A DNA stretch of 64,000 bases from NCBI GenBank assembly GCA_964393515.1, contig CAYMTY010000007.1:15710-79709 (forward strand). Direction: 5' to 3'. Below the pieces are notes generated by a model, which worked only from the letters and a program-made list of their open reading frames with translations, was not told the origin of the DNA and searched no databases. Each line of letters starts with the position of its first letter. The first letter of the stretch is position 1. Below, piece by piece: positions 28,151 to 48,896 of the stretch. This stretch comes from an uncultured Verrucomicrobiota bacterium (GTDB taxonomy: Bacteria; Verrucomicrobiota; Kiritimatiellia; CAIQIC01; Lenti-01). Position numbers and translations under genes: made by a program.

Positions 28151-29137
28151 ATGACAACATCTCCAGCCAGCGTGTCGGTGGTCGTTCCGGTCTACAACGA
28201 GGAAGCCAATGTCCCGGACCTCGCCCGCCGCCTCCACGCGGCGCTCGCCGCCATCGGGCGGACCTACGAGATCATCCTGGTGGACGACGGCTCGCGCGAC
28301 GCCACCTGGGCGCGCCTCAAGGAGGCCGCGGCGGCCTGGCCGCGCTTCCGGCTCATCCGCTTCCGCCGCAACTTCGGCCAGACCGCCGCCATGTCCGCCG
28401 GCATCGATGCGGCGCGGCACGATGTGATCGTGACCCTCGACGCCGACCTGCAGAACGACCCCGCCGACATCCCCCTGCTCCTCGCCGAGATGGAAAAGAA
28501 CCACTCCGCCGTGGTGTCCGGCTGGCGCAAGGACCGCAAGGACCCGTTCCTGAACCGGCGGCTGCCCTCCATGCTCGCCAACGGGCTCATTTCGCGCATC
28601 ACCGGCGTGCAGCTGCACGACTACGGCTGCACGCTCAAGGCCTATCGCCGCGAGGTGCTGCAGGGCGTGCGCCTCTACGGCGAAATGCACCGTTTCATCC
28701 CGGCCCTGTGCTCATGGGTTGGCGGCGACATCGCCGAGGTGGTCGTCACCCATCATCCGCGCCGGGCGGGCCAATCCAAGTACGGCATCGGGCGCACCTT
28801 CCGGGTTATCCTCGATTTGTTCACGGTGAAGTTCCTGCTGCGGTTCACGGGCGGCCCCATGCAGCTCTTCGGCAAGATCGCCTTCGTCTTCGGGGGCGCG
28901 GCCGCGCTGATGCTGGGCGTGGTGGTCTTCGACCAGTTCGTCCACCTGGGCGGCGGGGAAAGCCTGTACCTGATCAAGCGGCCCTTCTGGGTCATCACGC
29001 CGTTCATGCTGCTGGCGTTCTGCATGCAGTTCCTCTCGATGGGCCTGCTGGCGGAGGTCCAGATCCGCACCTACCACGAGTCGCAGAACAAGCCCATCTA
29101 CACGGTCCGCGAGACGTTCGACTCTCCCGGCGTCTGA
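28151..29137 (+). CDS. Glycosyltransferase family 2 (ArnC/DPM1-like polyprenol-phosphate glycosyltransferase)
   Basis: SVVVPVYNE, VDDGSRD, RRNFGQTAA, LDADLQNDP, DYGCTLKAYR, HRFIP, two C-terminal TM segments. Confidence 0.92.
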   Translation: MTTSPASVSVVVPVYNEEANVPDLARRLHAALAAIGRTYEIILVDDGSRDATWARLKEAAAAWPRFRLIRFRRNFGQTAAMSAGIDAARHDVIVTLDADLQNDPADIPLLLAEMEKNHSAVVSGWRKDRKDPFLNRRLPSMLANGLISRITGVQLHDYGCTLKAYRREVLQGVRLYGEMHRFIPALCSWVGGDIAEVVVTHHPRRAGQSKYGIGRTFRVILDLFTVKFLLRFTGGPMQLFGKIAFVFGGAAALMLGVVVFDQFVHLGGGESLYLIKRPFWVITPFMLLAFCMQFLSMGLLAEVQIRTYHESQNKPIYTVRETFDSPGV

Positions 29138-29943
29138 TGCCCCCCCCCGAAAGCCTCCACCTGTTTGTTCCGGTTGCCGCTGCGATGGCGCTGCTGCTGG
29201 TGGGCGGGGTGGCCGCGCTCGTCCACCTGGGACGGGGCGGTCCGGCGGACGCCGCGCCGTGGCGGCTCCAACTGGCGCGTTTCGCCGCCGCCAGCCCTTG
29301 GCGGCGGGGCGACCTGGCGGCCCTGCTGGCGCTGCTGGCCCTCGCACAGCTCCTTCGCTCACGCCTCCCGGGATCCCTCACCGCGCACGTGCTGGCCTTT
29401 CAGGGCGTCGTGCTGGCCGGAGTGCTTTGGCGCGCGCGCCGCAAGACGCGGCCCTTTGGCGACCGCCTCCCCCTGCGCACCGTTGCGGGACAAGCGCTCC
29501 TTCGCTGGCTGGCGATCCTGCCGGTTCTCTGGTTTTCCGCCTTCGTTTCGCAGCTCCTGCTGGATGCCTGGGGACATCCGGCCGGCTTCCAGGAGGCCAT
29601 CCGGTATTTTCTGGAAAGCTCCGACACCCGCCAGCGGTCGGCGCTCGTGCTGTTTGCGGTCGGCGTGGCGCCGGTGGCCGAGGAGCTGCTGTTCCGGGGC
29701 GTCCTGCTGCCGCTGCTGGTCCGCGGCGCGGGCGCGGCAGCCGGCCTGGCGCTGACGGCCATCGGCTTCGCAGCCCTGCACGGGCACCTCGGCACCTTCG
29801 TGCCGCTGGCGGCGATCTCCGTCGCCCTCTCGCTGGCCTACGCGCGCACCGGGTCGCTCCTCGTGCCCATGGCGATGCACGCCCTGTTCAACGGGGTCAA
29901 CCTCGCCCTGCTGGGCGTACTGGTCCGCGCCGGCGTGGTGTAA
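29137..29943 (+). CDS. CPBP (CAAX/Abi) intramembrane metalloprotease
   Basis: APVAEELLFRG, FAALH, AMHALFN; start overlaps the GT2 stop. Confidence 0.88.
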   Translation: MPPPESLHLFVPVAAAMALLLVGGVAALVHLGRGGPADAAPWRLQLARFAAASPWRRGDLAALLALLALAQLLRSRLPGSLTAHVLAFQGVVLAGVLWRARRKTRPFGDRLPLRTVAGQALLRWLAILPVLWFSAFVSQLLLDAWGHPAGFQEAIRYFLESSDTRQRSALVLFAVGVAPVAEELLFRGVLLPLLVRGAGAAAGLALTAIGFAALHGHLGTFVPLAAISVALSLAYARTGSLLVPMAMHALFNGVNLALLGVLVRAGVV

Positions 29944-29969
29944 TCACTTTCACCAAGAGATCGCCGCCG

Positions 29970-32900
29970 TCAAGGGCGGGTCACCTTCAGTCGCAGGAAT
30001 CGGTTTGAAAGCAGGGGCAAGACATCCTGCACATAACAAGTGACCGGATTGCCGGAGCCGCTCTCCGTCACATTTGAGGCCCCCCCCCAAGACCCATTGA
30101 TGTTGGTGGCAAGACCGGACCAGATTGTTCCGTTCGAGATCGCATGTGCACCCTGCACAATCAGGGTGGCATCATCCACATCGGTATTTCGATGAAAAAC
30201 GAGGACCGGCAGGCCATTGCTCCGGGTGCCACTTACCCGGGCGATATCGTCCGTATTCGTTGGACTGCTGCCGGTGGCATATTTCAACAGGTTGGGATAT
30301 CCATCGCCTGTTGCGCAATCGGTGTAATTAGACAATCCGTTCGTGATGCGGCTGGCCCAGGCCCAATAGCCGGCCGGCGCGGATCCTTCGCCTTGGTACT
30401 CATAGGCACCCATGTCCACCGTGCTGTTCACGATGCGTGGATTTCCGTCCAGGTCGGTTGTGCCATTCACATAGACATTGGTGCCTTGGTCGAGGCACGG
30501 GGAATTCGTGCTCAACCGGTAGTTGCCCGCTCCTGTATTCACGAACAACGGATTGTTGGTGATATTCCGCGTGCCGCCAGGGTCAGGAGTTGTGCAACTG
30601 GATACGAGCCAAGAAGCCTGATAATTCGCTCCGGTCGGGGCCGTGTTGAAATACACGATGCAGTTGTTCAGCCGGCCCGTGAACGAACCCCCGCCGCTAC
30701 CGCCCGCCACGTTGTCCGTAAGCGTGCAGTTGTTCAACGTTCCGTAACTTGATCCCCCGCCGTTGGTCAAGGCCGTGTTGCCGACCAGCAAGCTGTTGTT
30801 CAGCGTGCTGTCATATGCCCCGCCACCGGAGTTGAATGCCGAGTTGCCTGTCAGCCGGCAGCTGCTCAGCGTGCCGTAGTACGACCCGCCGCCGATGTTT
30901 GAGGACAAGTTGTCGGCGACAATGCAGTTGTTCAGAGTGCCGCTGTTAGCCCCGCCGCCGTAGCGGGCTGTATTGTTGGTCAGCGTGCAATTGTTCAGAG
31001 TGCTGCTGGCAACTCCGCCGCCATGGTAAGACGAATTGCCGACCAGCATGCAGTTGTTCAGCGTGGCGTAATATGTTCCGCCACCATAGCTATTATTACC
31101 ATATGCAGAATTTCCGGTTAACGTGCAGTTGTTCAGCGTACCGCCATAGGAGCCGCCGCCATAGTCGGACCGATTGCCGGTCAATGAGCAATTCTGCAGC
31201 GTTCCATAGCTTGAGCCGCCACCATAGCGATACGCCGCATTCCCAACCAGCGTACAATTGCTCAACATCCCGGAAGCCTCGCACCATGCGCCGCCTCCGC
31301 TACTGTCGTAATTCGGCTCGTAAACCGCCCGGGTGGCGCCGTTGGTCAGCGTGAAGCCCGAGAGCACCGCGTTGGTTCCCACATAGACGCAGCGCACCGC
31401 CGCGTTGCCATTGGTTTCGCCCGGATGCCGGGCGCCCCGAATGATCGTCGCGCCGGGACCGTTGACGCTACGCACCAGGATGGGCTTGGTAATTGCCACG
31501 CGGTTGGTCAGGGCACCTTGGACTACGCGCCCACCCGTGGCATACACCCCGTTGCTCACCAAAACCAGCGCCCCGGGCTGCGACGCTGCATCCACCGCGT
31601 CCTGGATGTTCGTGGCCGCCGTGGCCCACGAGGTAAACGGCGAGGAAGGAGTCGCATTACCAATGTTCACATAATGGACGGACTGTGTTGCCACCTGTAC
31701 CGTCACCGTGGCCGCCACGCCCGAGGGGTGGGTTTCATTATAAGCCCGGAGCACGACGGCATACGTCCCGGCCGACACAAAGGCATGGGCGACAAACGGC
31801 TGGTTGCTGGCAACCGCAGATCCACCCGCCCAGTGCCACGTGCTTCTCGTCGTCCGCCCGATGATGTCCGCCCGGAATTGAATGGGGAACCCGACCGCCG
31901 CATTCGTGGGAACTGCCCAGATGCTGACGCTCAGTGCGCCTGTGATCGCCCCGGCATGCACCTCGTCACAGCCCATGGAGGGCGGATTGCGCCACGCCTC
32001 TCCGTCGATGTCGGTTCCCGTCGTATTGGCACTGCTTCCCGCCCCGATGCAGGGTGAATTGGTCGCCAGATGCGAAGGGCTTGCCAATACCGGCTCATTG
32101 GTGATATTGCCCGCGCCTCCGCTTGGCGCAGGAGTCGTGCAAGTATAGTTGAACGTTCCGCCACTGAAATTTGGATTGTCCCCGGCGGTGTTGAAATACA
32201 CAATGCAGTTGTTTCGCGTACCGGAATACGAGCCACCGCCGGTATATGAGGCTGAATTTCCAGAGATCGTGCAGTTGTTCAACGTTCCGTTATACGACCC
32301 TCCTCCATTGGTGGAAGCTGAATTGCCAAAGATGGCACAGTTGTTCAGGGTGCCGTAGTACGAGCCTCCGCCTTGGGCGGCTGAATTGCCGGTGATCGTA
32401 CAGTTGTTCAATGTGCCGTTATTCGCCCCGCCACCGGCGAGTCCGGCCGAATTGCCGTTCAGCCTGCAATTCTGCAACGTGCCATAGGACGAGCCCCCGC
32501 CGTTGCCATTGGTGGCTGAATTGCCGGTGAGCGTGCAGTTGTTCAGCGTGCCATAGTATGTCCCACCACCAGAACTGGAATACCCATTTGCAGAATTGCC
32601 GGAGATCGTGCAGTTGTTCAGCGTGCCATAGTAGGCGCCGCCACCCGAGGCGTAATTGCTATATGTCGAATTGCCAGACAGTGTGCAGTTATTCAGTGTG
32701 CTGTAAGCGACTCCCCCGCCATTGGTCGCAGCCAAGTTCCCGGCCACCATGCAGTTGTCCAACATTCCATTGAACACGCCGCCACCGGCGGAACTGGCCG
32801 CGTTGCCCGCCACGATGCAGTTGCTTACGGCGCCGTAAACCTCGCACCAAACCCCGCCGCCGCTTTGTTCGCGAAGGATATCGCCGCTCGCCCGGGTGGC

Positions 32901-35900
32901 GCCGTTGGTCAGCGTGAAGCCCGAGAGCAGCGCGTTGGTTCCCAAATAGACGCAACGCACCGCCGCGTTGCCGTTGGTCGCGCCCGGATGTCGCGCCCCC
33001 TGGATGATCGTCGCGCCGGGGCCGTTGACGCTGCGCACCATGACAGGCTTGGAGATGGCCACCCGATTGGTCATGCTGCCATGGACCACGCGTCCGCCTG
33101 TGGCATACACCCCGTTGCTGACCAGGACCAAGGCGCCAGGCTGCAAGGTCGCATCGATGGCGTCCTGGATGTTCGTCGCCGCCGTGGTCCACGAGGTAAA
33201 CGGCGAGGATGGAGTCACATTGCCGATGTTCACGTAATGGACCGCCTGCGCCGCCACCTGCACCGTCACCGTAGCCGCCACCCCAAGAGGATAGGTTTCG
33301 TTGTAGGCTCGAAGCACGACGGCATACGTCCCGGCCGTCGCAAAGGCGTGGGAGACATACGGCTGGTTGCTGGCGACTGCGGATCCATCCCCCCATTGCC
33401 ATGCGCTCGCCGTCGTCCGCCCGGCAATGTTCGCCCGGAATTGAACGGGGAAGCCCACGGCCGCATTCGTAAGGGCCGCCCAAATGCCAACGCTTAATGT
33501 CCCGGTGACCGAGCCGGCCACTATTTCGTCGCACCCCATGGAGGGCGGATTCTGCCACGCCTCCCCGTCGATGTCGGTTCCCACAGCATTGGTACTATGG
33601 CCCGCACCGATGCACGGTGAACCGATTGCCAGATGGGATGCGCTTGCCAGCCGGGGTTCATTGGCGATATTGCCCGTTCCACCCGGCGCAGGAGTCGCGC
33701 AACTGTAGTTGAACGATCCGCCCATGTAATTTGGCCCGTTCAGCGCCGTGTTGTAATATGCAATGGAGTTCTGCAACGTGCCATAATACGAGCCGCCGCC
33801 GTTGTCGCCCGCCAAATTGCCGGTCAGCGTGCAATTTTTCAGCGTGCCAAAATACGAGCCGCCGCCGTTGGTGGCGGCCGTATTGCCGAAAATTGCACAG
33901 TTGTTCGGCGAGCCATAATACACTCCGCCGCCCGAACCTGCTGCATTGCCGGAGATCGTACAATTACTCAGAGCGCCGTAATAGGACCCGCCGCCAAAGG
34001 CGCCGGCCGCATTGCCGGAGATCGTACAATTGCTCAATATACCGTTATACGCCCCGCCACCGGAATAGGCCGCCAAATTGCCCGAGATGGTGCAGTTGTT
34101 CAGCCGGCCGGTATACGATCCGCCACCGGAGAGGCGCGCCGAATTGTTCGTCAAGAGGCAGTTATTGAGCGTTCCGGCATACGAACCGCCGCCGTTAGTG
34201 GCCGAATTGCCGGCCAGGATGCAGTCCGTCAGCGTGCCGTAATAGGATCCGCCGCCGTTGGTGGCGACATTGGCAGTCAAAGTGCAGTTGCTCAACGTAG
34301 AGTCACACGCCCCGCCGCCGGCGCTGGTGGCCGAATTGCCGGTTAACGCACAGTTGTCCAAGGTGCCGTAATAGATCCCGCCACCTAACCAAGCCGAATT
34401 GTCGTTCAACGCACAATCAATCATGACACTATGGCTGGATCCGCCCCCAAGATAAGCAGAATTACCGGTCACCGTGCAGTTGCTCAACGTGCCATAGTAC
34501 GAACCCCCACCGTAGTTGTTGGGGGCCGAATTGGCGGAGATCGAGCAATTATTCAGCGTTGAATAATAGGCCCCGCCGCCATAGGAGGCCGAATTGCCGA
34601 CAAGCGTGCAGTTGTTCAAAGTGCCATAGCAGGCGCCGCCTCCATAGCGGTAGGCCGAATTGCCGGAAATGACGCAATTGCTCAACACTCCGGAAGCCTC
34701 GCACCACGCGCCGCCGCCATCGCATTCTGGCCAGTCGCCGTAGTATATGTTAAGAGCGGTTGCGCCATTGGTCAGCGTGAAGCCCGATAGCATGGCATTG
34801 TCCCCGACAACGGCGCAACGCACCGCCGCGTTGCCGTTGGTTGTGATTGGATGCCATGCACCTTGGATGATCGTCGCGCCAGGCCCGTTGACACTGCGCA
34901 CCACGATGGCGTTGGTAATCACCACGCGGTTGGTCAAGCCCCCATGAACCACCCGTCCTCCCGTGGCATAGATTCCGTTACTGACCAGGATCAAGGCGCC
35001 CGGTTGCGAGGCCGCATCCACCGCGTCTTGGATGTTTGTCGCTGCCGTGGCCCACGTCGCAAACGGCGCGGAAGGCGCTGCATTGCCGATATCCACATAG
35101 TGGACCGCCTGCGCCGCCACCTGCACTGTTACCGTAGCCGCCACGCCAAGGGGATAAGTAGCATTATAAGCACGCAAGACCACGGCATAGGTACCGGCTG
35201 TCGCATAGGCATGTGTGGTAAACGGCTGGTTGCTGGAAACTGCCGCCCCATCCCCCCACTGCCAGACGGTTCCCGTCGGTCGGCCCGTGACGTCCGCCCG
35301 GAATTGAATGGGAAAGCCCACCGCCACATTCGTGGGTGCGGCCCAGATGCTGACGCCCAAGGCCCCCGTGATCGAACCGGCATGCACTTCGTCGCAACCC
35401 ATGGAAGGCGGATTGAGCCAAGCCTCCCCGTCGATGTCGGTCCCAGCCGCATTCGTACGGTTTCCGGCACCTATACATGGCGAGTCCGCCAGAAGATGGG
35501 AGGCGCTCGCCAAACGGGGATCGGCGGTGATGTTGCCGGGCCTGCCACTATACGCCGGCGTCGCACAACTGTAGCCGAGGATGGAGCCGGAGTAATTCGG
35601 CCCTTCCTGCGCCTGATTGTGATAGACAATGCAGTTGGTCAACGTTCCGTCGTACGAACCGCCACCTTGATTAGCCCGGTTGCCGCCCAAAGTGCAGTTG
35701 ATCAGCGTGCCTTGGTATGACCCGCCGCCATATTGGGCGGCATTGCCGGCCAACGCGCAGTTTCTCAACGTGCTTTGAAAAACGCCGCCGCCATTGGTCG
35801 CGGCCGAATTGCCGGTGAGCGTGCAGTTGTTCAGCGTGCCGTAGTACGACCCGCCGCCGGAGTTGGTTGCCGAATTGTTTAACAGTGCGCAGTTGCCTAG

Positions 35901-38900
35901 CGTTGCGGAATACGACCCGCCACCGAGTCTTGCGGAATTTCCAGACAGCGTGCAGTTGTTCAACAAACCGATACACACGCCTCCACCAGAGTATGCCGTA
36001 TTGCCGGAAATCGTGCAGTTGTTCATCATGCTGTCATATGCTCCACCGCCGGATCCTGCTGAATTGCCGGTCAACGTACAGTTGTCTAGCAAGCCGTTAT
36101 AAGCACCCCCGCCCGAAGATTGGGCGGAATTGCCGAGCAATGTGCAGTTGGCCAGCGTGCTATAGTATGCTCCCCCACCGTAGGTTCTGGCCGTGTTGCC
36201 GGCCAGAGTGCAATTATGGAGAGTACCGCCGACCGTACCGCCGCCGGATACATAGGCCGAATTGCCCGTCAGCGTACAGTTGCTCAGTATTCCAAAAGCC
36301 TCGCACCAAGCGCCGCCGCCGCATCGTTCGCGAACCTCGTCGCCTCCCGCCCGGGTTGCACCATTGGTCAGCGTGAAGCCCGAGAGTACCGCGTTGGTCC
36401 CGACATAGACGCAACGCACGGCCGTATTGCCATTGGTTTGGCCCGGATGCCAAGCGCCCTGGATGATCGTCGCGGCCGGCCCGTTGACGCTGCGCACCGT
36501 GACGGGCTTGGAAAGCGCCACGCGGTTGGTCATGCTGCCAAAGACTACCCGTCCCCCCGTGGCATACACCCCGTTGCTGACGAGGATCAAGGCGCCTGGC
36601 TGCGAGGCCGCATCCACCGCATCCTGGATGTTTGTCGCCGCCGTGGACCATGACGCGAACGGCGAGGAAGGCGTCGCATTTGCAATGTTCACATAATGGA
36701 CCGCCTGCGCTGCCACCTGCACCATCACCGTGGCTGCAACACCAAGAGGATAGGTCTCGTTGTAGGCCCTGAGCACAACGGCATAGGTTCCGGCCGTGGA
36801 AAAGGCATGGGTGGCATGGGGCTGATTGCTGGAGATCGTGCCGTCTCCCCATTGCCAAGCACTTGCCGTCGCCCGCCCGGAGATATCCGCCCGGAACTGC
36901 ACTGGAAAGCCCACGGCCACGTTGGTGGGAAACGCCCAAGCGCTGACGCTCAAGGCCCCCGTGATCGAACCGGCATAGACTTCATCGCATCCCATGGCGG
37001 GGGGACTGCGCCACGATTGGCCGTCGATATCGAATCCTGTCGCATACGAAGTGGATCCCTTGCCAATACACGGCGAATCAGCGGCCAGATGGGTGGCGCT
37101 CGCCAGGCGGGGCTCGTTGGTAATGTTGCCTGTCCCGCCCAGAGGTGCTGGAGTTATGCAACTATATTGCGGATCGCAACTGTAATTTGCAGAGACCGGA
37201 GCCGTGTTGTAATATGCGATACTGTTCAACAGACTACCATCGGAGGAGCCGCCGCCGGAAGAACCGGCCGAATTGCCCGTTAAAGTGCAGTTATACAGGA
37301 GGCTCTGATATGCACCCCCTCCCGTGTTGGCCGAATTGCCGGACACCATGCAATTCGTCATGCCACCACGAAACATGCCGCCGCCATTGTTGCTGGCCGT
37401 ATTGCCGATGAATGAACAATTTTTAGCGGCACCTTCGTATGCGCCGCCGCCATCGCTGCGGGCCGAATTGCCCGTCATCGTGCAGTTGCTCAACGTCCCA
37501 TAGTATGAACCACCGCCAGAGCCAGCCGAATTGCTTGTCAGCGTGCAATTCTGCAGCGCGCCATAATACGAGCCGCCACCGCTGTCAGCCGTGTTGCCGG
37601 TCAACGTACTGTCGATTAATACTGCATAATATGATCCGCCGCCGCGATTGCGAGCCGCATTGTCAGACAAGGTACAATTGTTCAGCAGCCCATAGTACGT
37701 GCCGCCGCCATAGTAGTACGCCGCATTTCCGGACAGAACACAATTGGTGATGATTTCGTTGGTGCCCGCACACCAAATGCCGCCGCCGTAGCCGTCGGCG
37801 CCGCTTGTTTCTCGCGTTGCGCCATTGGTCATGGTGAATCCGGAAAGGGTTGCGCCGTTGGTCATCCAGACGCACCGGACGGCGGCATTGCCATTGGTGG
37901 TTTCTGGGACTTGCGCGCCCTGGATGATGGTGACGGCCGGACCATTCACGCTACGAACCGTGATGGTGTTCGTGATCGTCACCCGGTTGGTCAGGGATAC
38001 TCCCGTTGCCGGCCGGCCCCCGGTTCCATAAACGCCATTTGTAACCAAAACCACGGAAGCAGGCAGAGTTGCCGCATCGACGGCATCTTGGATGTTTGTC
38101 GCGGCTTTTCCCCAACTGTCATAGGGCGCCGCCGGAGTCGCGTTGGAACCATTCACGTAATAGATGCCGGTCACGACGCGGACTTGCACGGTCGCTGCCA
38201 CCCCGCCCGGATGGTCGTCGTTCCACGCCCGCAATACAACGGCATACAGGCCCGTTGCGGCCCAGGCATGGCTGACTTCGAAGGATTGATTCGCCAAGAA
38301 TCCGCCGTCCCCGAAGGACCAGAGGTTGGAAACCGGAATTCCTTGGATATTGGCGCTCAACCGGACGGGATAGTTGAGAACCGCGTTTGTTGCGTCAGCG
38401 GCAAGGGCCACCGTCAGCGCCCCCGTCGCCGGCCGGGTGGGTTCATCGCAACCCATCGCAGGCGGAACGAGCCAAGGCTGGCCATCGATATCCACGCCAC
38501 GGGAATAATTCGTTCTCCCGGCTCCGACACAAGGCGAATTGGCGGCGATGTGGGCGGGATTCAGCAACAGAGGGTTGTCGGCGATATTGCCCGTGCCGTT
38601 GGTCGGCATTGGTGTGGAGCAGGAATAGTTGAATGTGCCGCCATCATAATTCGTCCCGCTGGGAGCCATATTGTGATACACGATGCAGTTGCCCAGCGTG
38701 CCACCAGACGAACCGCCGCCCGAATTGGTCGCTGAATTGCCGGTTAAGGTGCAGTTGTTCAGTGTGCCACCGGACGAGCCGCCGCCCGATGAACCGGCCG
38801 AATTCCCAGAGAGCGCACAGTTGTTCAGCGTGCCGTAGTACGAGCCGCCGCCATAGGAACCAGCCGCATTGCCTGTCAATATGCAGTTGGTCAACGCGCC

Positions 38901-41489
38901 ATAATACGCGCCACCGCCGCGGTAAGCCGAATTATCCGTCAAGGTGCAGTTGCTCAATGTACCGCCATACATGCCCCCGCCGTTCCAATAGGCCGTATTG
39001 CTGACCAACGTGCAATTGTTCAGAGTGCCGTAATAGGCCCCGCCGCCCTCGCCTGCGTAAGTACCGGTTACCGAATTTCTGGTCAGCGTGCAGTTGTCCA
39101 GCGTGCCATAATATGAGCCGCCGCCGTAGGAAGCCGTATTGCTGGCTACCGTGCAGTTGCTCAACGCGCCATAGCATGCGCCGCCGCCTAAGGAAGCCGA
39201 GTTGCTGGCCAGCGTGCAGTTGTTCAGCCGACTAGTATATGCACCGCCGCCGCTGCCGTATTGGGCCGAATTGCCGGCCACCGTGCAGTTGTTGAGCGTG
39301 CCGCCGAACACCCCGCCGCCGTTGGTGGAGGCCCGGTTGCCGATCAAGGTGCAATTGTTCAGCAAGCCCGTGTAGGCGCCGCCCCCGTGGGCCCGGGCCC
39401 AGTTGCCGGTCATTGAACAATCTACCAACATGCCATTATTCGCTCCGCCGCCATAATAGGCCGCATTGCCGGAAAGCACACAGTTTGATATCGAAGCATT
39501 CGTGGTTGAACACCATATTCCGCCACCCTTTCCATCCTCGCTCCAATAGCTATTGAGGGTGGCACCGTTGGTCAGGGTGAATCCCGCCAAGGAGGCGCCG
39601 TCGGTCATCCAGACACAACGCACCGCGCCATTGCCGTTGGTGGTCAGCGGATCTTTTGCGCCTTGGATGAAGGTGACGTTCGGCCCATTCACGCTGCGCA
39701 CCCTTATGGCATTGGTGATTGCCACCCGGTTGGTCAGCGGCATCCCCGGCGCCTTCCGCCCCCCGGTCGCATAGATGCCATTGGTTACCAAAACCAGGGA
39801 TCCCGATATGGTCGCGGCATCCACCGCGTCTTGGATGTTCGTGGCGGCGGTCGCCCAGTTGGTGTAGGGATGCGCCGGCGCGGGACTGTCCAGCCTTACG
39901 TAATGAATTCCCCCCTGCACGGTCAACGTGGCCACTGCAGATGTCACGGCTCCATACGCATTGCTGACCACGCACCGATATCCGCCGGCATCGGATGGCA
40001 CCAACTCAGATATTCCATGCCCGCTATTGGTGGCACTCGGGATGAGAGCGGCGTCTTTTTGCCATTGATAATACAACGGAGCAGGACCTCCGGCGACAAC
40101 GCGAAAGGATACGGAGGCCCCGGCAATGTTGGTTTGGGAAACAGGATGAACGCCGATCGCTGGCGGCACCATCCGGACATACAGGCTGTTAACCGATGCG
40201 GTTCGCCCGGTAGCAATGGATACTTCCTGGTCAGTTGGGGCCAGAAACCCGGCAACCGTGCTGCAAGTGACGGTATGGATGCCCACCGACAGCCCCGAAA
40301 GGTAGGTTCCGCTGCTCCGCCAAGACCCGCCATCCACGCGCCACTGCGCGCCGGCATCGACGGCCTCGGATGGATAGAGCGTGACCCGCAGCCCGGCTGC
40401 AGTTCCCGGGTGCTCATAGGCCCCCATGTCCACCGAGCTATTGACAATCCGCGGATTATCCTCCAAGTCGCGGTCCACGGTCACATCGTTGGTACGCCCT
40501 GCATCGATGCAAGGAGAGGCACTGGCCAAATGATAGTTTCCCGTGGCGGGAGTCACGAACTGCGGATGGTCGGAAATGTTGCCCGCACCGTCGGGTTGGG
40601 GCGCTGCGCAGGTATAAGTGAAAGCACCTCCCGTCCAATTCTGGACAGCATCCCCCGCCATGTTCAGTTGGATGATCGAATTGACAAACTCCGTCGCTGC
40701 AGAAACCACATACACCCCGCCGCCATCCGCAATCCCATTGCCGGGCAATGGGCTCCCCCAACCCGCCCCGCCAGATCCGCCCACGCCCACGGCGCGGTTG
40801 CTGGAAATCGTGGAGTTTTCCACGTGAAGCTGTCCCGCGGCATAGAGCCCGCCGCCCTGGCCATAGCCATCGCCGCCTGGCCCCATATATCCCATACATG
40901 GATCATAAAGGCCATTCCCGCCCTCGCCATAGGCGACATTGGCATAAATCAAGCAGTTGCGGATCGTGAGATTGCTCGTCGCATAGATTCCCGCACCCTG
41001 TCCGTACCCAGCGCCGCCTCCGTCATATCCCAATCCCTCGACACGGTTACTGAAAATGATGCAGGAATCGATCAGTGCTGCGCGGTTGGCATAAATACCG
41101 CCACCGCGTGAAATGCCCGGTGTGCCATATGCGGTTGTAACGCACGAGCGGATGGTGAATCCCTCCACCCGCGCGTTGGTGTGGTCCAGATACAGCCCCC
41201 GAACCAATCCACTCCCATTCAGGACCGCAGCCCGAGGGCCGCCCAAGCTCTTCAGCGTGATTCCATTGGTGATGTTGATCGTTGTCGGCAACAGATATGT
41301 TCCATCTCCGACCAACACGACATCCCCGTTGGTGGCGACATCCACCGCCGATTGAATGTTGGTGGCCGCAATCCAAGAGTTGGTGAAGGGGGCAACATGC
41401 TGTCCGTTGGTGGCGACATAAATGGTTCTTGCCGAGCCTGATAGTGCAATTCCCGCCGCGATCATCAGCGCCAAGGCTGTTCTCTTCAT
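29970..41489 (-). CDS. Giant (3839 aa) secreted beta-helix/PKD repeat surface protein
   Basis: Signal peptide; seven modules starting ...AATNIQ(D/S)A(V/I)D; ~22-aa rungs NNCTLTGNSA..GGG.Y.GTL; SPCI..G and VDMGAYE (choice-of-anchor-Q-like); Ig domain (YQWQKD...YRCVVSN); five PKD-like domains; ends NRFLRLKVTRP. Confidence 0.9.
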   Translation of the reverse strand: MKRTALALMIAAGIALSGSARTIYVATNGQHVAPFTNSWIAATNIQSAVDVATNGDVVLVGDGTYLLPTTINITNGITLKSLGGPRAAVLNGSGLVRGLYLDHTNARVEGFTIRSCVTTAYGTPGISRGGGIYANRAALIDSCIIFSNRVEGLGYDGGGAGYGQGAGIYATSNLTIRNCLIYANVAYGEGGNGLYDPCMGYMGPGGDGYGQGGGLYAAGQLHVENSTISSNRAVGVGGSGGAGWGSPLPGNGIADGGGVYVVSAATEFVNSIIQLNMAGDAVQNWTGGAFTYTCAAPQPDGAGNISDHPQFVTPATGNYHLASASPCIDAGRTNDVTVDRDLEDNPRIVNSSVDMGAYEHPGTAAGLRVTLYPSEAVDAGAQWRVDGGSWRSSGTYLSGLSVGIHTVTCSTVAGFLAPTDQEVSIATGRTASVNSLYVRMVPPAIGVHPVSQTNIAGASVSFRVVAGGPAPLYYQWQKDAALIPSATNSGHGISELVPSDAGGYRCVVSNAYGAVTSAVATLTVQGGIHYVRLDSPAPAHPYTNWATAATNIQDAVDAATISGSLVLVTNGIYATGGRKAPGMPLTNRVAITNAIRVRSVNGPNVTFIQGAKDPLTTNGNGAVRCVWMTDGASLAGFTLTNGATLNSYWSEDGKGGGIWCSTTNASISNCVLSGNAAYYGGGANNGMLVDCSMTGNWARAHGGGAYTGLLNNCTLIGNRASTNGGGVFGGTLNNCTVAGNSAQYGSGGGAYTSRLNNCTLASNSASLGGGACYGALSNCTVASNTASYGGGSYYGTLDNCTLTRNSVTGTYAGEGGGAYYGTLNNCTLVSNTAYWNGGGMYGGTLSNCTLTDNSAYRGGGAYYGALTNCILTGNAAGSYGGGSYYGTLNNCALSGNSAGSSGGGSSGGTLNNCTLTGNSATNSGGGSSGGTLGNCIVYHNMAPSGTNYDGGTFNYSCSTPMPTNGTGNIADNPLLLNPAHIAANSPCVGAGRTNYSRGVDIDGQPWLVPPAMGCDEPTRPATGALTVALAADATNAVLNYPVRLSANIQGIPVSNLWSFGDGGFLANQSFEVSHAWAATGLYAVVLRAWNDDHPGGVAATVQVRVVTGIYYVNGSNATPAAPYDSWGKAATNIQDAVDAATLPASVVLVTNGVYGTGGRPATGVSLTNRVTITNTITVRSVNGPAVTIIQGAQVPETTNGNAAVRCVWMTNGATLSGFTMTNGATRETSGADGYGGGIWCAGTNEIITNCVLSGNAAYYYGGGTYYGLLNNCTLSDNAARNRGGGSYYAVLIDSTLTGNTADSGGGSYYGALQNCTLTSNSAGSGGGSYYGTLSNCTMTGNSARSDGGGAYEGAAKNCSFIGNTASNNGGGMFRGGMTNCMVSGNSANTGGGAYQSLLYNCTLTGNSAGSSGGGSSDGSLLNSIAYYNTAPVSANYSCDPQYSCITPAPLGGTGNITNEPRLASATHLAADSPCIGKGSTSYATGFDIDGQSWRSPPAMGCDEVYAGSITGALSVSAWAFPTNVAVGFPVQFRADISGRATASAWQWGDGTISSNQPHATHAFSTAGTYAVVLRAYNETYPLGVAATVMVQVAAQAVHYVNIANATPSSPFASWSTAATNIQDAVDAASQPGALILVSNGVYATGGRVVFGSMTNRVALSKPVTVRSVNGPAATIIQGAWHPGQTNGNTAVRCVYVGTNAVLSGFTLTNGATRAGGDEVRERCGGGAWCEAFGILSNCTLTGNSAYVSGGGTVGGTLHNCTLAGNTARTYGGGAYYSTLANCTLLGNSAQSSGGGAYNGLLDNCTLTGNSAGSGGGAYDSMMNNCTISGNTAYSGGGVCIGLLNNCTLSGNSARLGGGSYSATLGNCALLNNSATNSGGGSYYGTLNNCTLTGNSAATNGGGVFQSTLRNCALAGNAAQYGGGSYQGTLINCTLGGNRANQGGGSYDGTLTNCIVYHNQAQEGPNYSGSILGYSCATPAYSGRPGNITADPRLASASHLLADSPCIGAGNRTNAAGTDIDGEAWLNPPSMGCDEVHAGSITGALGVSIWAAPTNVAVGFPIQFRADVTGRPTGTVWQWGDGAAVSSNQPFTTHAYATAGTYAVVLRAYNATYPLGVAATVTVQVAAQAVHYVDIGNAAPSAPFATWATAATNIQDAVDAASQPGALILVSNGIYATGGRVVHGGLTNRVVITNAIVVRSVNGPGATIIQGAWHPITTNGNAAVRCAVVGDNAMLSGFTLTNGATALNIYYGDWPECDGGGAWCEASGVLSNCVISGNSAYRYGGGACYGTLNNCTLVGNSASYGGGAYYSTLNNCSISANSAPNNYGGGSYYGTLSNCTVTGNSAYLGGGSSHSVMIDCALNDNSAWLGGGIYYGTLDNCALTGNSATSAGGGACDSTLSNCTLTANVATNGGGSYYGTLTDCILAGNSATNGGGSYAGTLNNCLLTNNSARLSGGGSYTGRLNNCTISGNLAAYSGGGAYNGILSNCTISGNAAGAFGGGSYYGALSNCTISGNAAGSGGGVYYGSPNNCAIFGNTAATNGGGSYFGTLKNCTLTGNLAGDNGGGSYYGTLQNSIAYYNTALNGPNYMGGSFNYSCATPAPGGTGNIANEPRLASASHLAIGSPCIGAGHSTNAVGTDIDGEAWQNPPSMGCDEIVAGSVTGTLSVGIWAALTNAAVGFPVQFRANIAGRTTASAWQWGDGSAVASNQPYVSHAFATAGTYAVVLRAYNETYPLGVAATVTVQVAAQAVHYVNIGNVTPSSPFTSWTTAATNIQDAIDATLQPGALVLVSNGVYATGGRVVHGSMTNRVAISKPVMVRSVNGPGATIIQGARHPGATNGNAAVRCVYLGTNALLSGFTLTNGATRASGDILREQSGGGVWCEVYGAVSNCIVAGNAASSAGGGVFNGMLDNCMVAGNLAATNGGGVAYSTLNNCTLSGNSTYSNYASGGGAYYGTLNNCTISGNSANGYSSSGGGTYYGTLNNCTLTGNSATNGNGGGSSYGTLQNCRLNGNSAGLAGGGANNGTLNNCTITGNSAAQGGGSYYGTLNNCAIFGNSASTNGGGSYNGTLNNCTISGNSASYTGGGSYSGTRNNCIVYFNTAGDNPNFSGGTFNYTCTTPAPSGGAGNITNEPVLASPSHLATNSPCIGAGSSANTTGTDIDGEAWRNPPSMGCDEVHAGAITGALSVSIWAVPTNAAVGFPIQFRADIIGRTTRSTWHWAGGSAVASNQPFVAHAFVSAGTYAVVLRAYNETHPSGVAATVTVQVATQSVHYVNIGNATPSSPFTSWATAATNIQDAVDAASQPGALVLVSNGVYATGGRVVQGALTNRVAITKPILVRSVNGPGATIIRGARHPGETNGNAAVRCVYVGTNAVLSGFTLTNGATRAVYEPNYDSSGGGAWCEASGMLSNCTLVGNAAYRYGGGSSYGTLQNCSLTGNRSDYGGGSYGGTLNNCTLTGNSAYGNNSYGGGTYYATLNNCMLVGNSSYHGGGVASSTLNNCTLTNNTARYGGGANSGTLNNCIVADNLSSNIGGGSYYGTLSSCRLTGNSAFNSGGGAYDSTLNNSLLVGNTALTNGGGSSYGTLNNCTLTDNVAGGSGGGSFTGRLNNCIVYFNTAPTGANYQASWLVSSCTTPDPGGTRNITNNPLFVNTGAGNYRLSTNSPCLDQGTNVYVNGTTDLDGNPRIVNSTVDMGAYEYQGEGSAPAGYWAWASRITNGLSNYTDCATGDGYPNLLKYATGSSPTNTDDIARVSGTRSNGLPVLVFHRNTDVDDATLIVQGAHAISNGTIWSGLATNINGSWGGASNVTESGSGNPVTCYVQDVLPLLSNRFLRLKVTRP

Positions 41490-43333
41490 TTGTCTTTCTC
41501 CTCTATCGCGGGAGCGCCCAAAGCAACCAGATCCCGACGAATCAATTCTGACATTTGTTCAGAATTTGACAGTACCATTGCCTGCCGGTAGGAAGCAATG
41601 GCCTCCTCCGTCAGATTACGTTCTCGTTCGGCCAGCGCCTTCTGGAACCACAACCCGAAATCCATAGGGAAACGCGCCAACCCCTGGCCGAGGGTGGCAA
41701 AAGCCTCTCGGGCTTTACCGCAGGCAAATTGGGCTTGAACCAATGAATGAAAGGCGGGGATAAAGCAGGGATTCAGACGCAGCGTACGGTTCAGAAGCGA
41801 TTCGGCGGCTTCGCAATCGGCGGCGACAGACGTGGTGGCCCCGGAGTGCAGGGATAGGGATCTGGATTGAATCCAAGGTGCCCTCCAGTCACGGATGGGA
41901 TTCAGGGAAATCCAGCGGTGTTTCAGCCCGCCCGGATGCAGTTCCACGGCCGGTTTCCTTCTCAAGGCAGATTCCATGATGGAATTATTTGCCCATAGCG
42001 AGAAACCTCCCATCGCACAACAAGCCAGTATAATCCCCAGCGCGAGCGTGGCTGGCGTCCTGTCCTGCTCGCAGGGGGCTTGGTTCGCGCATGGGCGCAA
42101 GCCCCGGCAGGCAACCCCCAACAATACCGCCAGAACCACCACATTAGCCGGAACGTGCAGGGTGAAATCAAAAACCGATTGCGCCAGCATGCCTCCGGCG
42201 GAAGCGGTGCTCGCTGCGAGCAGCGCTCGCCCCCTGCGGCTCGTTGCGCGAACCCCCCGGCGCCCAGCAAGGAAGACCAGCCCGCAAACCGCGATGCCCC
42301 CAATCAGTCCGGATTGCGTGAGCAATTCCAGAAAATCATTGTGGGCATGCGTTCGCTTGAGCGGGGCGGCGGAAAGATGGCGGTCGTAAGCTGGATAGAT
42401 CCAGGCATAGGAGCCCGGGCCCCAACCCCACAAGGGCTTGGCGCGAATCATGTCGATGGTTGCCGGCCATAGCTGGGTCAGCCGGTCATCGCGGGCCCAC
42501 GCCCCCATTCGATGCGTTAAGTGGCGCTTGGAAGCCTCCCCCATCAAACACCATGCGCTGATTGTGCAAACAAGCAACCCGGTGGCGAGCCCCAGCCATA
42601 CCCGTTTCCCCGGCCTTCTGAAAATGAACCATATGGCCAAGGCGCAACACAGACCGATCAGTCCTGAACGGGACTGAGTAAACATGATGGCGATGAATCC
42701 AAGACCCAGGGGGAGCCCATAGACGGCGAACCGCCATCGCCCGTAGGACGGAGTGGACAATGCCGTAAGGAGAAATGGAGACACGATCACGATCAAATTG
42801 GCCAAGTGATTGGGGTTGTAATAAACCGATCCCGGGCGATGCAGGTAATCCGCGTTTTCGGGGATTCCAAACATCCGCCAGCCCGTGGCTGCCTCCAGAA
42901 AGACATGAACAGACAACAGTCCGATCATGATTGAGAAAACGAACAGAATTCGGCCGGGATGCATCTGTTTCAGGCATGAAGCCGCAATCAGGAAAGTAAG
43001 CAGGTAAACCGCCCAAGCCCAGACTTCCTCGATGGCGCTGATGAAAACGATGGCACTGAAACATTGAATGAATGCGATCGCCCACGCGACCAACAGCGGC
43101 ACGGCTATGGAACGGCGGGGAAGGTTGCAGGTCTCGCCGGTTCGCTGCTGAAAGAAAATCCAGAAACTGGCGGTTATCAGAAAACCGACGCTAACCAGAG
43201 TGAAATGGGCAGAATTCATGCCCCCGCGCAAAACGACCAGAATCAACGCGTAAGCCAAAAGAAGATAGAAGACGACTGTTTTCCGATGTGGCCGCTGATC
43301 TGGTTCACAAGCGCTTACAACAGCACCATTCAT
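41486..43333 (-). CDS. O-antigen ligase (Wzy_C) family membrane protein with C-terminal TPR-like repeats
   Basis: Multiple TM segments; YYNPNHLAN, FTQSRSGLIG, KPLWGWGPGSY, HAHNDFLELL; helical TPR-like C-terminus. Confidence 0.85.
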   Translation of the reverse strand: MNGAVVSACEPDQRPHRKTVVFYLLLAYALILVVLRGGMNSAHFTLVSVGFLITASFWIFFQQRTGETCNLPRRSIAVPLLVAWAIAFIQCFSAIVFISAIEEVWAWAVYLLTFLIAASCLKQMHPGRILFVFSIMIGLLSVHVFLEAATGWRMFGIPENADYLHRPGSVYYNPNHLANLIVIVSPFLLTALSTPSYGRWRFAVYGLPLGLGFIAIMFTQSRSGLIGLCCALAIWFIFRRPGKRVWLGLATGLLVCTISAWCLMGEASKRHLTHRMGAWARDDRLTQLWPATIDMIRAKPLWGWGPGSYAWIYPAYDRHLSAAPLKRTHAHNDFLELLTQSGLIGGIAVCGLVFLAGRRGVRATSRRGRALLAASTASAGGMLAQSVFDFTLHVPANVVVLAVLLGVACRGLRPCANQAPCEQDRTPATLALGIILACCAMGGFSLWANNSIMESALRRKPAVELHPGGLKHRWISLNPIRDWRAPWIQSRSLSLHSGATTSVAADCEAAESLLNRTLRLNPCFIPAFHSLVQAQFACGKAREAFATLGQGLARFPMDFGLWFQKALAERERNLTEEAIASYRQAMVLSNSEQMSELIRRDLVALGAPAIEEKDK

Positions 43334-43426
43334 ACATGGATTATCTTCATGTTGCAGCTAGGGATCAACAAGATTATGCGCCACATGATGATGCGGCAAG
43401 TCCTTGCTCCGTACGGACGATGACGA

Positions 43427-44050
43427 TTAAATTTGGGAGTCGCGCGGGAATTCCGCGGCGCCGGCGGCGATCAGGGCGCCCCATTTTTCCCTGGCCAGCG
43501 CCAAGGCCCGGCCCCGGTGGCTCAAGGCGTGCTTCTCGGCGCCGTCCATCTCGGCGAAGGTCCGGTCATGGCCTTCCGGCACGAACAGCGGATCGTAGCC
43601 GAAGCCCTTGGCCCCGCGCAGTTCCGCCACGATGCGCCCCGGGCACGCGCCGGACACCGTCTCGGCGCGGCCGGAGGGATCACTCAGGGCCACGACGCAC
43701 CGGAAGCGCGCGGAACGGTCTTTTTTTCCGGCCAGCTCGCGCAGGAGCTTGGCGTTGTTCTTCGCGTGGTTGCCCGGGTCGCCGGCGTAGCGGGCGGAAT
43801 AGACCCCCGGCGCATTGCCGAGCGCGGTCACTTCGAGCCCCGAGTCGTCGGCCAGCGCCCACAGGCCGGTCGCCTGCGCCAGTTCCGTCGCTTTCTTGAG
43901 GGCGTTGCCCTCGAAGGTGTCCCGGTCCTCCTCCACGTCGGGCAGTCCGGGGAATTCCGCGGTGGAGACCCACTCCACGCCGGGCAGGTCGAAGATCTCC
44001 CGGATTTCCTGGATCTTGTGGGCGTTGCGCGAGGCGATCAGGAGCTTCAT
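43427..44050 (-). CDS. rdgB: Non-canonical purine NTP pyrophosphatase
   Basis: ASRNAHK, NALKKA, ADDSGL, PGVYSARY, GFGYDPLF, KHALSHRG. Confidence 0.96.
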   Translation of the reverse strand: MKLLIASRNAHKIQEIREIFDLPGVEWVSTAEFPGLPDVEEDRDTFEGNALKKATELAQATGLWALADDSGLEVTALGNAPGVYSARYAGDPGNHAKNNAKLLRELAGKKDRSARFRCVVALSDPSGRAETVSGACPGRIVAELRGAKGFGYDPLFVPEGHDRTFAEMDGAEKHALSHRGRALALAREKWGALIAAGAAEFPRDSQI

Positions 44051-44059
44051 GGAATCTTT

Positions 44060-45193
44060 CTAGGCGCCGGCGTAGCGCCGTTCGATCTGCCGGCAAATCC
44101 CGGTCAGGATTTCATAGGGGATGGTGTTGCAGTGCTTGGCCAGTTCATCGGCCCAGATCCGCTCCCCGCCCTGTTCACCGATCAGCACGACCTCGTCGCC
44201 GGCTTTCACGCCGCTGTCCGGGCCGAGATCGGCCGAAATCCAGTTCATGCTGACGCGGCCGACCACGGGGCGGCGTTTCCCGCCGATGAGTACGTGGCCT
44301 TTGTTGCCGAGGTGCCGCTGGTAGCCGTCGGTGTAGCCGCAGCTGATGGTGGCCAGTTCCGTGGGCGCCGGGGTCTTGTAGCTGGCGTAATAACCCACCG
44401 CAAACCCGGCTGGCACCTTTTTCACCTGCAGCACGCGCGATTTCCACTGGAGCACGGGGGCGGTCGCAAAGCGCCGGCCGGCCTCCGCCGCGCCATAGCC
44501 GTAGAGCGAAATCCCGATCCGCACCGCGTCGTGATCGCATTCCGGCAGCAGCAGCGCGGCCCGGCTGCTGGACAGGTGGCGGAACAGGCGCCGGCCCGCC
44601 GCCGTCTCGATCGCCGGCAGCGCCTGGCGGAACTTTTCGAACTGCCCTTTGGCGGCCGTCGGCTTCTTTTCCGGCTCCACCATGGAGAAGTGGGTGCAGA
44701 CCCCCAGCACCTCCAGGCCGGTCAAGCGGACGGTCTCCGCCGCCGCCTCCGTTTCGGCCGGGCAGACGAACCCGAGCCGCCCCATACCGGTGTCCAATTT
44801 GAGGTGTACGCCCAGCCGGCCGCCGGCGGCCATTGCCGCATCGGAAAGCGCGCGGCCATGCCCGGCCGACACCACCACCGGCGTGATGCGCCCCGCCAGC
44901 ATCCGCGGCACCTCCGCCGGCCCGGCCGCCCCCAGGACCAGGATCAGTTCCGCGTCCGGCGCGGCGGCCCGCACCGCCACCGCCTCGGCCACATAAGCCA
45001 CCGCGAACCGGCTCACGCCCGCGCGGGCCAGCGCGGCCGCCACCGGCGCCAGGCCGTGGCCGTAGGCGTCCGCCTTCACGACCGCGATCATCCCCGCCCG
45101 GCCCACGGCGGCTTGGATCGCCACCGCGTTCCCGCGCAGCCGGCCCACATCCACCTCGACCCATGACCCGTTGCAATCCATCTTGGCCGCCAT
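44060..45193 (-). CDS. alr: Alanine racemase
   Basis: VVKADAYGHG (PLP Lys), KLDTGMGRLG, VRIGISLYG, GYTDG, GRVSMN, TIPYEIL. Confidence 0.96.
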   Translation of the reverse strand: MAAKMDCNGSWVEVDVGRLRGNAVAIQAAVGRAGMIAVVKADAYGHGLAPVAAALARAGVSRFAVAYVAEAVAVRAAAPDAELILVLGAAGPAEVPRMLAGRITPVVVSAGHGRALSDAAMAAGGRLGVHLKLDTGMGRLGFVCPAETEAAAETVRLTGLEVLGVCTHFSMVEPEKKPTAAKGQFEKFRQALPAIETAAGRRLFRHLSSSRAALLLPECDHDAVRIGISLYGYGAAEAGRRFATAPVLQWKSRVLQVKKVPAGFAVGYYASYKTPAPTELATISCGYTDGYQRHLGNKGHVLIGGKRRPVVGRVSMNWISADLGPDSGVKAGDEVVLIGEQGGERIWADELAKHCNTIPYEILTGICRQIERRYAGA

Positions 45194-45322
45194 TTAACAC
45201 CGGGACCTTCCCGGGCGCGACATTTTTCAGGCGGTTCCGCAAAATAGCTTCCGGAAGCCGGGACTGGACTTGCGCCCTAAGCCCGGTATACTACCGCACC
45301 AAGAACGAAGGAGGCTGCCCCG

Positions 45323-45967
45323 ATGAAATCCCGTCGCGTCCGTTTTGGGTTGTCAGTTCTAGCAGGTGTTCTGGTCCTGGGCTTACCGGCCGGCTGCGAT
45401 GACGGCGACGGCGGCCTCACCAACAAGAATCCCGGCGACAACGACAAGAACGTCGTGGCCTGCTTCGGGGACAGCATTACCATGGGGAACATGTGCGCGT
45501 GCACCCCATATCCCGCCCGCCTCGGCGCCCGCATCCGTAAAACCGTCTATAATTCCGGCGTCAACGGCACCACGGCCCAGGAAAGCGTCGGCCGCACCCA
45601 GGAAGCCATCGACCGCTACCATCCCGCCTTCATGATGATCCTCTACGGCGTCAACGACATGATTCACGGTTTCGGCGCGGGCAGCACCGCGGCCGCCGTC
45701 GGCCAGATGGTGGACATCTGTCGGCAGAACCACGTGGTGCCGGTCATCGCCACCTATCCGATCCCGATCGCGGACCACCAGGCGTTTGCCAACCGCACCC
45801 GCCTGCTGAACAGCCATCTGCGGAATCTGGCCAAGGACCTCGGCGTGCGCTGCGTCGAACTGGAGCGGGAATTCAACGAGGATCCCACTCTGTACGAACC
45901 GGACGGCCTCCACCCGAACGAAACCGGCACCCAGATCATCGCCATGGCGTTTGCGGACCTCTTTTAA
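45323..45967 (+). CDS. SGNH/GDSL hydrolase lipoprotein, paralog 1
   Basis: Lipobox LPAGC; FGDSIT, NSGVNG, YGVND, DGLHPN. Confidence 0.88.
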   Translation: MKSRRVRFGLSVLAGVLVLGLPAGCDDGDGGLTNKNPGDNDKNVVACFGDSITMGNMCACTPYPARLGARIRKTVYNSGVNGTTAQESVGRTQEAIDRYHPAFMMILYGVNDMIHGFGAGSTAAAVGQMVDICRQNHVVPVIATYPIPIADHQAFANRTRLLNSHLRNLAKDLGVRCVELEREFNEDPTLYEPDGLHPNETGTQIIAMAFADLF

Positions 45968-46060
45968 CGGACTAACTCAATTCTCATCGTTTCGCGCTGG
46001 ACGCGGGCGCTCCAATGTCCTACCCTCCAGAAAGATAGGCAATCCGAGGAGGTTTTCCTG

Positions 46061-46738: not shown

Positions 46739-46791
46739 GTTCGGCCGCTGGCCAACGGCAGATTGCTGACTGCCGCCTGATCCCCGCCGGC

Positions 46792-48890: not shown

Positions 48891-48896
48891 GCCCGC

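Follow-up and report, generated by a model that had tools for sequence, protein, structure and literature searches.

Two adjacent genes in a stretch of 64,000 nucleotides from an uncultured Verrucomicrobiota bacterium (contig CAYMTY010000007.1, positions 15,710 to 79,709; hereafter the window, in whose coordinates all positions are given unless another contig is named) raise the question of whether a membrane enzyme of the O-antigen ligase type can be devoted to a single, very large secreted protein. The upstream gene (P0001, 41486-43333, minus strand) is an open reading frame (ORF) for a protein of 615 amino acids (aa), here called the ligase, with a Wzy_C domain (Pfam, 7e-21); the downstream gene (P0002, 29970-41489, minus strand) is an ORF for a protein of 3839 aa, its giant partner, which carries a signal peptide and beta-helix, immunoglobulin (Ig) and PKD domains. 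Known bacterial O-oligosaccharyltransferases (O-OTases) are either general enzymes (PglL) or dedicated to type IV pilins (TfpO, TfpM, PglS). An initial annotation of the window, made from its letters alone, had proposed a dedicated glycosylation cassette made up of this pair. We consider a dedicated protein O-OTase encoded together with its own target to be the best single explanation of the locus, and put its probability at roughly 0.4.

The two genes are coupled in every ortholog examined

The two ORFs lie exactly where the initial annotation had placed them and overlap in an ATGA (41486-41489, minus strand), in which the giant-gene start codon ATG (41489-41487) overlaps the ligase stop codon TGA (41488-41486). 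The minus-strand junction reads GAGGAGAAAGACAAATGAAG, and a Shine-Dalgarno-like hexamer, GAGGAG, stands at 41503-41498, 8 nt 5' of the giant-gene start; we read the overlap as putative translational coupling of the two genes. To place this arrangement among relatives, we draw on a word-indexed search covering 5.8 billion proteins, which returned only seven clusters of ligase orthologs (56-81% identity; one annotated Opitutae metagenome-assembled genome, MAG), and on the neighbourhoods of six of these clusters (P0003, P0005-P0009) together with that of the window protein. All ortholog loci are Opitutia metagenome contigs, from bioreactor and wastewater metagenomes. In each of the seven neighbourhoods a homologous partner gene lies directly 3' of the ligase gene with a 4-bp overlap, which is kept on contigs L001, L002, L003-5, L006, L016 and L022; on L017 and L018 the gene caller picked a later start, yet a GTGA overlap is present.

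The pair has moved as well as persisted, for it occurs in three unrelated flanking contexts: Ham1-alr/CAAX protease, patatin-ABC/fmt and ScpA/ScpB-aminotransferase/DAHP synthase. The third of these, represented by L017 and L018, contains a 512-bp direct repeat (L017 2493-3004 and 9883-10394, 96.3% nucleotide identity; the same in L018) that consists of the duplicated 3' half of a hisC-like aminotransferase gene and brackets a 6.9-kb insert holding a 91-aa ORF, the ligase gene and the partner gene. This bracketing repeat is a footprint left when the pair was inserted as a unit.

Both proteins also share the same narrow distribution in the searches that we ran. In a hidden Markov model (HMM) search of 1.84 billion representatives the ligase clade formed a single 50%-identity cluster, after which nothing scored above 142 bits; the C-terminal domain of P0001 is confined to the seven ortholog clusters; and a contig scan of the GTDB species representatives found one close relative only, the Opitutia MAG SABN01. 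Scans of metagenome contigs with the partner N-terminus and with the ligase alignment gave nothing useful. On the partner side, the N-terminal 525-750 aa are found at 60% identity or more only in ligase-linked partners, and two more remote relatives of the partner, L019 and L021 (about 30% identity), lack an adjacent Wzy_C gene. Ratios of nonsynonymous to synonymous substitution (dN/dS) of 0.21-0.33 for the ligase and 0.13-0.18 for the partner N-terminus place both under purifying selection. Because the overlap is present in seven of seven cases and in three contexts, the pair was inserted as a unit in one of these, the distributions match and both genes are under purifying selection, functional coupling of the two genes is well supported. 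The dedicated two-gene cassette of the initial annotation is in this respect strongly borne out.

An improbable alternative is that the genes have no functional link and are merely co-inherited or co-transferred neighbours. Since the clade is single and narrow, adjacency could partly be a matter of shared ancestry, and the synonymous divergence (dS) of about 0.68 from L001 is common to all genes, flanks included; yet such a history leaves unexplained why the 4-bp overlap is held down to 56% identity and in three contexts, with unit insertion in one of them, and why the restricted distributions of the two proteins coincide.

Four runs labelled as metatranscriptomic (X4-X7) also hold the locus, with contigs that cross the junction of the ligase and giant genes (window 28500-45500). 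The runs yield contigs of 145-262 kb whose depth is flat over housekeeping and cassette genes alike, and in none of the four was the middle of the giant gene, which is rich in repeats (about 31.3-39.3 kb), assembled. The runs probably contain genomic DNA, and for this reason the junction-crossing contigs are no evidence of co-transcription.

WaaL fold, intact catalytic triad and predicted periplasmic TPR domain of the ligase

Pfam assigns residues 210-349 of the ligase to Wzy_C (PF04932; 75 bits, cut-off 31.7) and reports weak tetratricopeptide repeat (TPR)/BTAD matches at residues 502-593. The AlphaFold2 (AF2) model of the protein (pLDDT 75, pTM 0.76) has as its best Foldseek match in the PDB the ligase WaaL of Cupriavidus metallidurans (CmWaaL, 7TPG; E 1.2e-5, TMt 0.61), with the SEDS proteins, which are structurally related, next. 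A profile built from the membrane domain aligns with 7TPG (E 7e-18), matching the arginines of the SRSG and RL..W motifs and the histidine of HAHND; phmmer with the membrane domain alone found no match in the PDB, and a profile was needed to reach 7TPG. Unlike CmWaaL, to which it is about 16% identical, the ligase has a 13th transmembrane (TM) helix and a further domain of 168 aa.

The membrane domain (residues 1-447; 41993-43333, minus strand) is predicted by AF2 to comprise 13 TM helices with a cytoplasmic N-terminus. Its large periplasmic catalytic loop (residues 264-332; 42338-42544, minus strand) holds conserved columns and has the lowest dN/dS in the gene (0.09-0.22): across 24 and 13 distant homologs, R284, G303, G305, H331 and N332 (HAHND motif) are invariant, and R222 is nearly so. 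The counterparts of R222, R284 and H331 are R215, R288 and H338 in the WaaL of Escherichia coli (EcWaaL) and R224, R298 and H349 in the PglL of Neisseria meningitidis (NmPglL) (PMC3643930), and the R222/R284/H331 catalytic triad is intact in the ligase as judged from these alignments. The triad and the HAHND loop do not vary and are more constrained than the rest of the protein, which argues that enzymatic activity has been retained.

The domain that follows TM13 (residues 448-615; 41489-41992, minus strand) contains three TPR-like repeats and an invariant DFGLWFQKALAERERN motif. AF2 models helical repeats at residues 503-604, and the last 100 residues or so match three-repeat TPR proteins in Foldseek (TMt about 0.7) as well as the TPR profile. 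The short cytoplasmic loops of the membrane domain carry 14 lysines and arginines and the short periplasmic ones 3, which fits the positive-inside rule. Because the catalytic loop is periplasmic as in WaaL and a 13th helix follows, this 168-aa TPR domain is predicted to lie in the periplasm, where the extra helix would place it.

A predicted periplasmic TPR domain, strict pairing and overlapping genes would also suit a ligase-like protein that is non-catalytic or repurposed and serves the giant protein in its assembly, anchoring or export, with the TPRs as a chaperone-like dock; the window contains no recognisable outer-membrane export partner for the giant protein. We nevertheless regard this reading as quite improbable, given that the triad and the HAHND loop are precisely the residues held invariant and under the strongest constraint.

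Two further resemblances of the ligase were observed. A conserved motif of a periplasmic loop, SVYYNPNHLAN (window 42805-42831, residues 168-176), in which N175 and H176 are nearly invariant among distant homologs, resembles the 'NPNL' signature reported for Wzy_C proteins of the IctB group in cyanobacteria (PMC4594306); the TIGR00947 IctB match is far under its cut-off (68 vs 366 bits). A full-length ligase profile matches PDB entry 9rmk_A, a 610-aa 'Oligosaccharyltransferase', at E 3.7e-13 over profile positions 127-531. The entry, which might be a solved O-OTase, gave no match to the membrane-only profile and is not among the Foldseek matches.

The partner is a giant beta-helix protein with a conserved N-terminus

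The giant protein begins with a Sec signal peptide, MKRTALALMIAAGIALSGSA, and contains right-handed beta-helix modules, seven in all, with caps beginning at residues 41, 548, 1129, 1617, 2149, 2770 and 3291. A beta-sandwich and an Ig domain follow the first module, PKD domains serve as linkers, and the protein ends in a domain of about 135 aa. In keeping with this layout, Pfam finds Beta_helix (2.5e-29) in seven stretches together with five PKD domains and Ig_3, and the NCBIfam choice_anchor_Q model NF041518 scores 92 bits against a cut-off of 25. The beta-helix modules also match the NosD/CASH profile, which is of a carbohydrate-binding type (PF05048, 5e-19). No pilin domain is present in this Sec-signal beta-helix/Ig/PKD protein. 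The richness in serine, threonine and asparagine that the initial annotation had remarked on is real, these residues making up 28.5% of the protein vs 10.7% of the pooled flanking proteins; the protein has 110 cysteines and 89 N-X-S/T sites, 36 of which are NCT, and contains only four Bacteroidota-type D[ST][AILVMT] motifs.

What all ligase-linked partners share is the N-terminal 525 aa (39915-41489, minus strand), comprising the signal peptide, the first beta-helix, the beta-sandwich and an I-set Ig domain, which are 62-97% identical among them while the parts downstream differ. The beta-sandwich after the first beta-helix is present in every linked partner, whereas relatives at about 30% identity go straight from the beta-helix into Ig domains. 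In the AF2 model of these 525 residues (pLDDT 65) residues 330-441 fall below 50, and its Foldseek matches are dominated by the Ig domain and shed no light on the beta-helix or the beta-sandwich. Related choice-of-anchor Q beta-helix proteins are common in Verrucomicrobiota at about 30% identity and share the NF041518, Beta_helix, PKD and Ig_3 matches of the giant protein; unlike them, only the ligase-linked clade has the additional beta-sandwich and a Wzy_C gene upstream.

The clade-specific beta-sandwich-like domain (GLRVTL..QWRVDGGSW..HTV..) occupies window 40170-40395, corresponding to partner residues of about 365-440. It is preceded by a short linker rich in serine and threonine that reads HPGTAAG, LGTSSG, PGTTTG or LGATTG, and MGSTTG in L022; speculatively, this linker is a candidate acceptor site.

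Partner length is bimodal, with proteins of 1329-1362 aa (L003 11824-15813; L016 2879-6967) and of 3815-3839 aa (L001/L002). The partners on L001, L002 and L006 are 3815-3836 aa long or cut by the contig end, as is that on L022, and those on L003/4/5 and L016 measure 1329 and 1362 aa, respectively. Long and short forms have the N-terminal 750 aa or so in common and differ in the remainder and in their C-terminal domains; the short form shows weak, sub-threshold Pfam matches to BACON_2 and bacterial TSP3.

The pair lies outside lipopolysaccharide and exopolysaccharide loci

As the initial annotation had noticed, no sugar-biosynthesis genes accompany the pair: within about 10 kb of it there is no glycosyltransferase, flippase, nucleotide-sugar or tRNA gene, and a scan of the 64 kb with a purpose-built HMM found one Wzy_C gene. 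In all three contexts the ligase gene stands outside a lipopolysaccharide (LPS) or exopolysaccharide (EPS) locus. In two other Opitutales MAGs, Wzy_C paralogs of the ordinary kind (26-29% identity) occur amid genes for kdsB, kdsD, UDP-glucose dehydrogenase, ManC and GDP-mannose dehydratase. On contig L013 (6181-10495) two paralogs of about 490-520 aa have a UDP-glucose dehydrogenase gene between them, and on L014 (1977-3545) one paralog is confirmed; those on L013 and L014 lie within such a cluster and are likely the true LPS ligase or polymerase genes of the order.

It is therefore very unlikely that the ligase is the organism's housekeeping LPS O-antigen ligase. WaaL 7TPG is its best structural and its best profile match; against this, a housekeeping function sits badly with a clade that is accessory and rare, being represented by one MAG only among the GTDB species representatives and by a single 50% cluster worldwide, with a position outside an LPS locus while other Opitutales Wzy_C paralogs sit in Kdo/sugar clusters, with the extra TM helix and TPR domain, and with a locus that is a recombination mosaic.

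An enzyme encoded beside its target and outside glycan clusters has precedents. The genes of the dedicated O-OTases TfpO, TfpM and PglS typically lie next to those of their targets and away from LPS loci (PMC3643930; PMC12645811). The ligase resembles TfpO (PilO), TfpM and PglS in being a Wzy_C/WaaL-like membrane enzyme whose gene adjoins, and is co-oriented with, that of a single secreted protein, again outside LPS clusters. It differs from them in that their targets are small and type IV pilin-like, whereas the partners here are beta-helix/Ig/PKD proteins of 1.3-3.8 thousand aa, and in that they have no C-terminal TPR domain and no detectable close sequence relationship to the ligase. With Neisseria PglL it shares the superfamily and the triad, but PglL is a general oligosaccharyltransferase (OTase), not tied to one target. 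For a TPR domain on such an enzyme the nearest parallel is one of logic and not of family: TfpW, the pilin arabinosyl-OTase of Pseudomonas aeruginosa, has a large periplasmic C-terminal TPR domain (bioRxiv 10.1101/2020.04.19.049825) and a gene adjacent to that of its target, which makes it a functional analogy for docking, although it is a GT-C (ArnT-like) protein without the WaaL fold. Eukaryotic OGT, a soluble GT-B enzyme, compares by analogy only.

The TMTC proteins offer a further analogy of TPRs borne by glycosylation enzymes.

Composition and recombination history

The lower GC content and weaker third-position bias reported by the initial annotation were recovered. GC is 0.57 in the ligase gene and 0.60 in the giant gene against 0.65-0.71 in the flanks, and GC at third codon positions (GC3) is 0.64 and 0.69, respectively, vs 0.85-0.93 (about 0.88) in the housekeeping neighbours. 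A similar offset is found on L001, L002, L003 and L017, where the pair has a GC3 of 0.62-0.73 vs 0.81-0.91 for its flanks. Relative to L001, dS is about 0.67-0.69 for the ligase, the partner, Ham1, alr and hisA alike, and because pair and flanks agree in this, their vertical co-inheritance since the split from L001 is indicated. Recent horizontal gene transfer as the source of the low GC was considered and rejected: the pair keeps its low GC3 across four lineages, and its dS from L001 is no different from that of its neighbours. The low GC3 is a lasting property of these two genes and does not mark a recent import into this genome.

Comparison with the near-identical relative L006 over window 38600-50560 gives a patchwork. 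Identity is 100.0% across 5.1 kb (50560-45461) and beyond 45461 falls abruptly to 87-91% across alr/Ham1 and 75-96% across the ligase gene; in the giant gene it is 98% in the first 1.2 kb and 54-69% deeper in. At this scale the locus is a mosaic produced by recombination between genomes that are nearly identical, which suggests a hypervariable surface locus; such a pattern is typical where surface antigens evolve under diversifying selection or exchange alleles frequently.

A candidate dedicated O-oligosaccharyltransferase

If the ligase is a dedicated O-OTase, the two genes would make up an accessory cassette belonging to a small clade of Opitutia. The inner-membrane WaaL-fold enzyme would take a glycan linked to undecaprenyl pyrophosphate and made elsewhere in the genome, and its R222/R284/H331 site would transfer this glycan en bloc onto serines or threonines of the partner while the Sec-exported, co-expressed protein crosses the periplasm, with the periplasmic three-repeat TPR domain docking it. 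The lipid-linked donor, the protein acceptor, the topology of the TPR domain and its docking role are the parts of this scheme that we infer. The position of the ligase outside glycan clusters in all three contexts, like that of the target-adjacent TfpO, TfpM and PglS, argues for it.

Several observations weigh against a dedicated O-OTase. To our knowledge, all dedicated Wzy_C OTases target pilin-like proteins, and none a beta-helix giant. The profile search suggested in the initial annotation recovered Wzy_C above its cut-off and TPR weakly, and PglL_A (PF15864) and Wzy_C_2 (PF11846) were both absent at E <= 0.01 in the Pfam scan; TfpO and TfpM also occur without the PglL_A and Wzy_C_2 motifs (PMC3643930; PMC12645811). 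The abundant N-X-S/T sites of the partner belong to the structural ladder of Asn, Cys and Thr that lines the rungs of the beta-helix, and they have no bearing on an O-linking enzyme. Relative to L006, the TPR-coding part is the most divergent segment of the ligase gene (75-77% nucleotide identity), set against 98% for the partner N-terminus, a pattern that does not fit a simple lock and key between the TPRs and that N-terminus; if the TPRs do dock the partner, what they recognise may be its variable modules and not this conserved region. The wider family points elsewhere too. The nearest non-orthologous relatives (P0010 and P0011; 22-34% identity) lie in EPS loci with Wzz/GNVR, Poly_export and BBP2_2 genes, and many of the proteins found with the profile are 590-650 aa long, with matches that begin in the membrane domain and run on into the C-terminal part; as judged by match length and span, this is consistent with a common architecture of Wzy_C plus C-terminal TPRs. 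On gene neighbourhood, a point at which the initial annotation had thought its proposal open to challenge from homologs in LPS clusters or unlinked to large secreted proteins, the orthologs are always partner-linked and outside LPS loci, and the remote homologs are found in EPS loci.

These last findings lead to a serious though rather unlikely alternative, in which the Wzy_C-TPR protein acts as a ligase or polymerase of polysaccharide, its acceptor being a lipid or a glycan (LPS or EPS) and not a protein, and the beta-helix partner binds, organises or modifies the polysaccharide. Besides the remote homologs in Wzz/Poly_export loci and the seemingly common Wzy_C-TPR architecture, it could draw on the NosD/CASH matches of the beta-helix modules and on the weak, sub-threshold IctB resemblance. 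Some of the non-orthologous relatives carry C-terminal TPRs, among them proteins of EPS loci such as P0010 of Candidatus Electrothrix; unlike the ligase, these EPS-locus proteins sit within export clusters, have no adjacent beta-helix protein and do not share the C-terminal domain of P0001. Wzy-type polymerases normally lie inside such clusters, as the ordinary Opitutales paralogs do, yet no flippase, glycosyltransferase, Wzz or export gene stands by the pair in any of its three contexts, and strict translational coupling to one protein goes unexplained by a polysaccharide acceptor.

More tentative than the dedicated O-OTase itself is the full claim that the ligase may be the first Wzy_C-type O-OTase dedicated to a non-pilin substrate, a giant beta-helix adhesin recognised through a fused periplasmic TPR domain, in a recombining cassette under diversifying surface pressure. 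If true, it would extend the rule that the enzyme lies next to its target to a new class of substrate, with a receptor domain fused to the enzyme; it would offer a sequence-defined handle on substrate choice by O-OTases, which is poorly understood and relevant to bioconjugate engineering; and many 'O-antigen ligase' annotations of Wzy_C-TPR proteins would merit re-examination. The reach of the finding is set by a tiny uncultured clade of wastewater and bioreactor Opitutia and by a chemistry that is only proposed.

Flanking and minor features

A C-terminal sorting domain common to the giant protein (29970-30419) and the esterase encoded at 7171-9219 was considered and rejected, BLASTP finding no similarity between the two (best E 1.8). 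No PADLOC defence model matched. Just 5' of the ligase start, a sigma-70-like promoter match, TTGATC-17-GATAAT (43340-43368, minus strand), is present as a consensus match only, the total of such matches in the region being not above shuffle expectation. The genes that flank the pair are housekeeping genes, namely Ham1/RdgB, alanine racemase (alr), two GDSL lipases, hisA/H/B and the genes for an NAD(P)HX repair protein, a CAAX protease and a MalK-like ABC ATPase.

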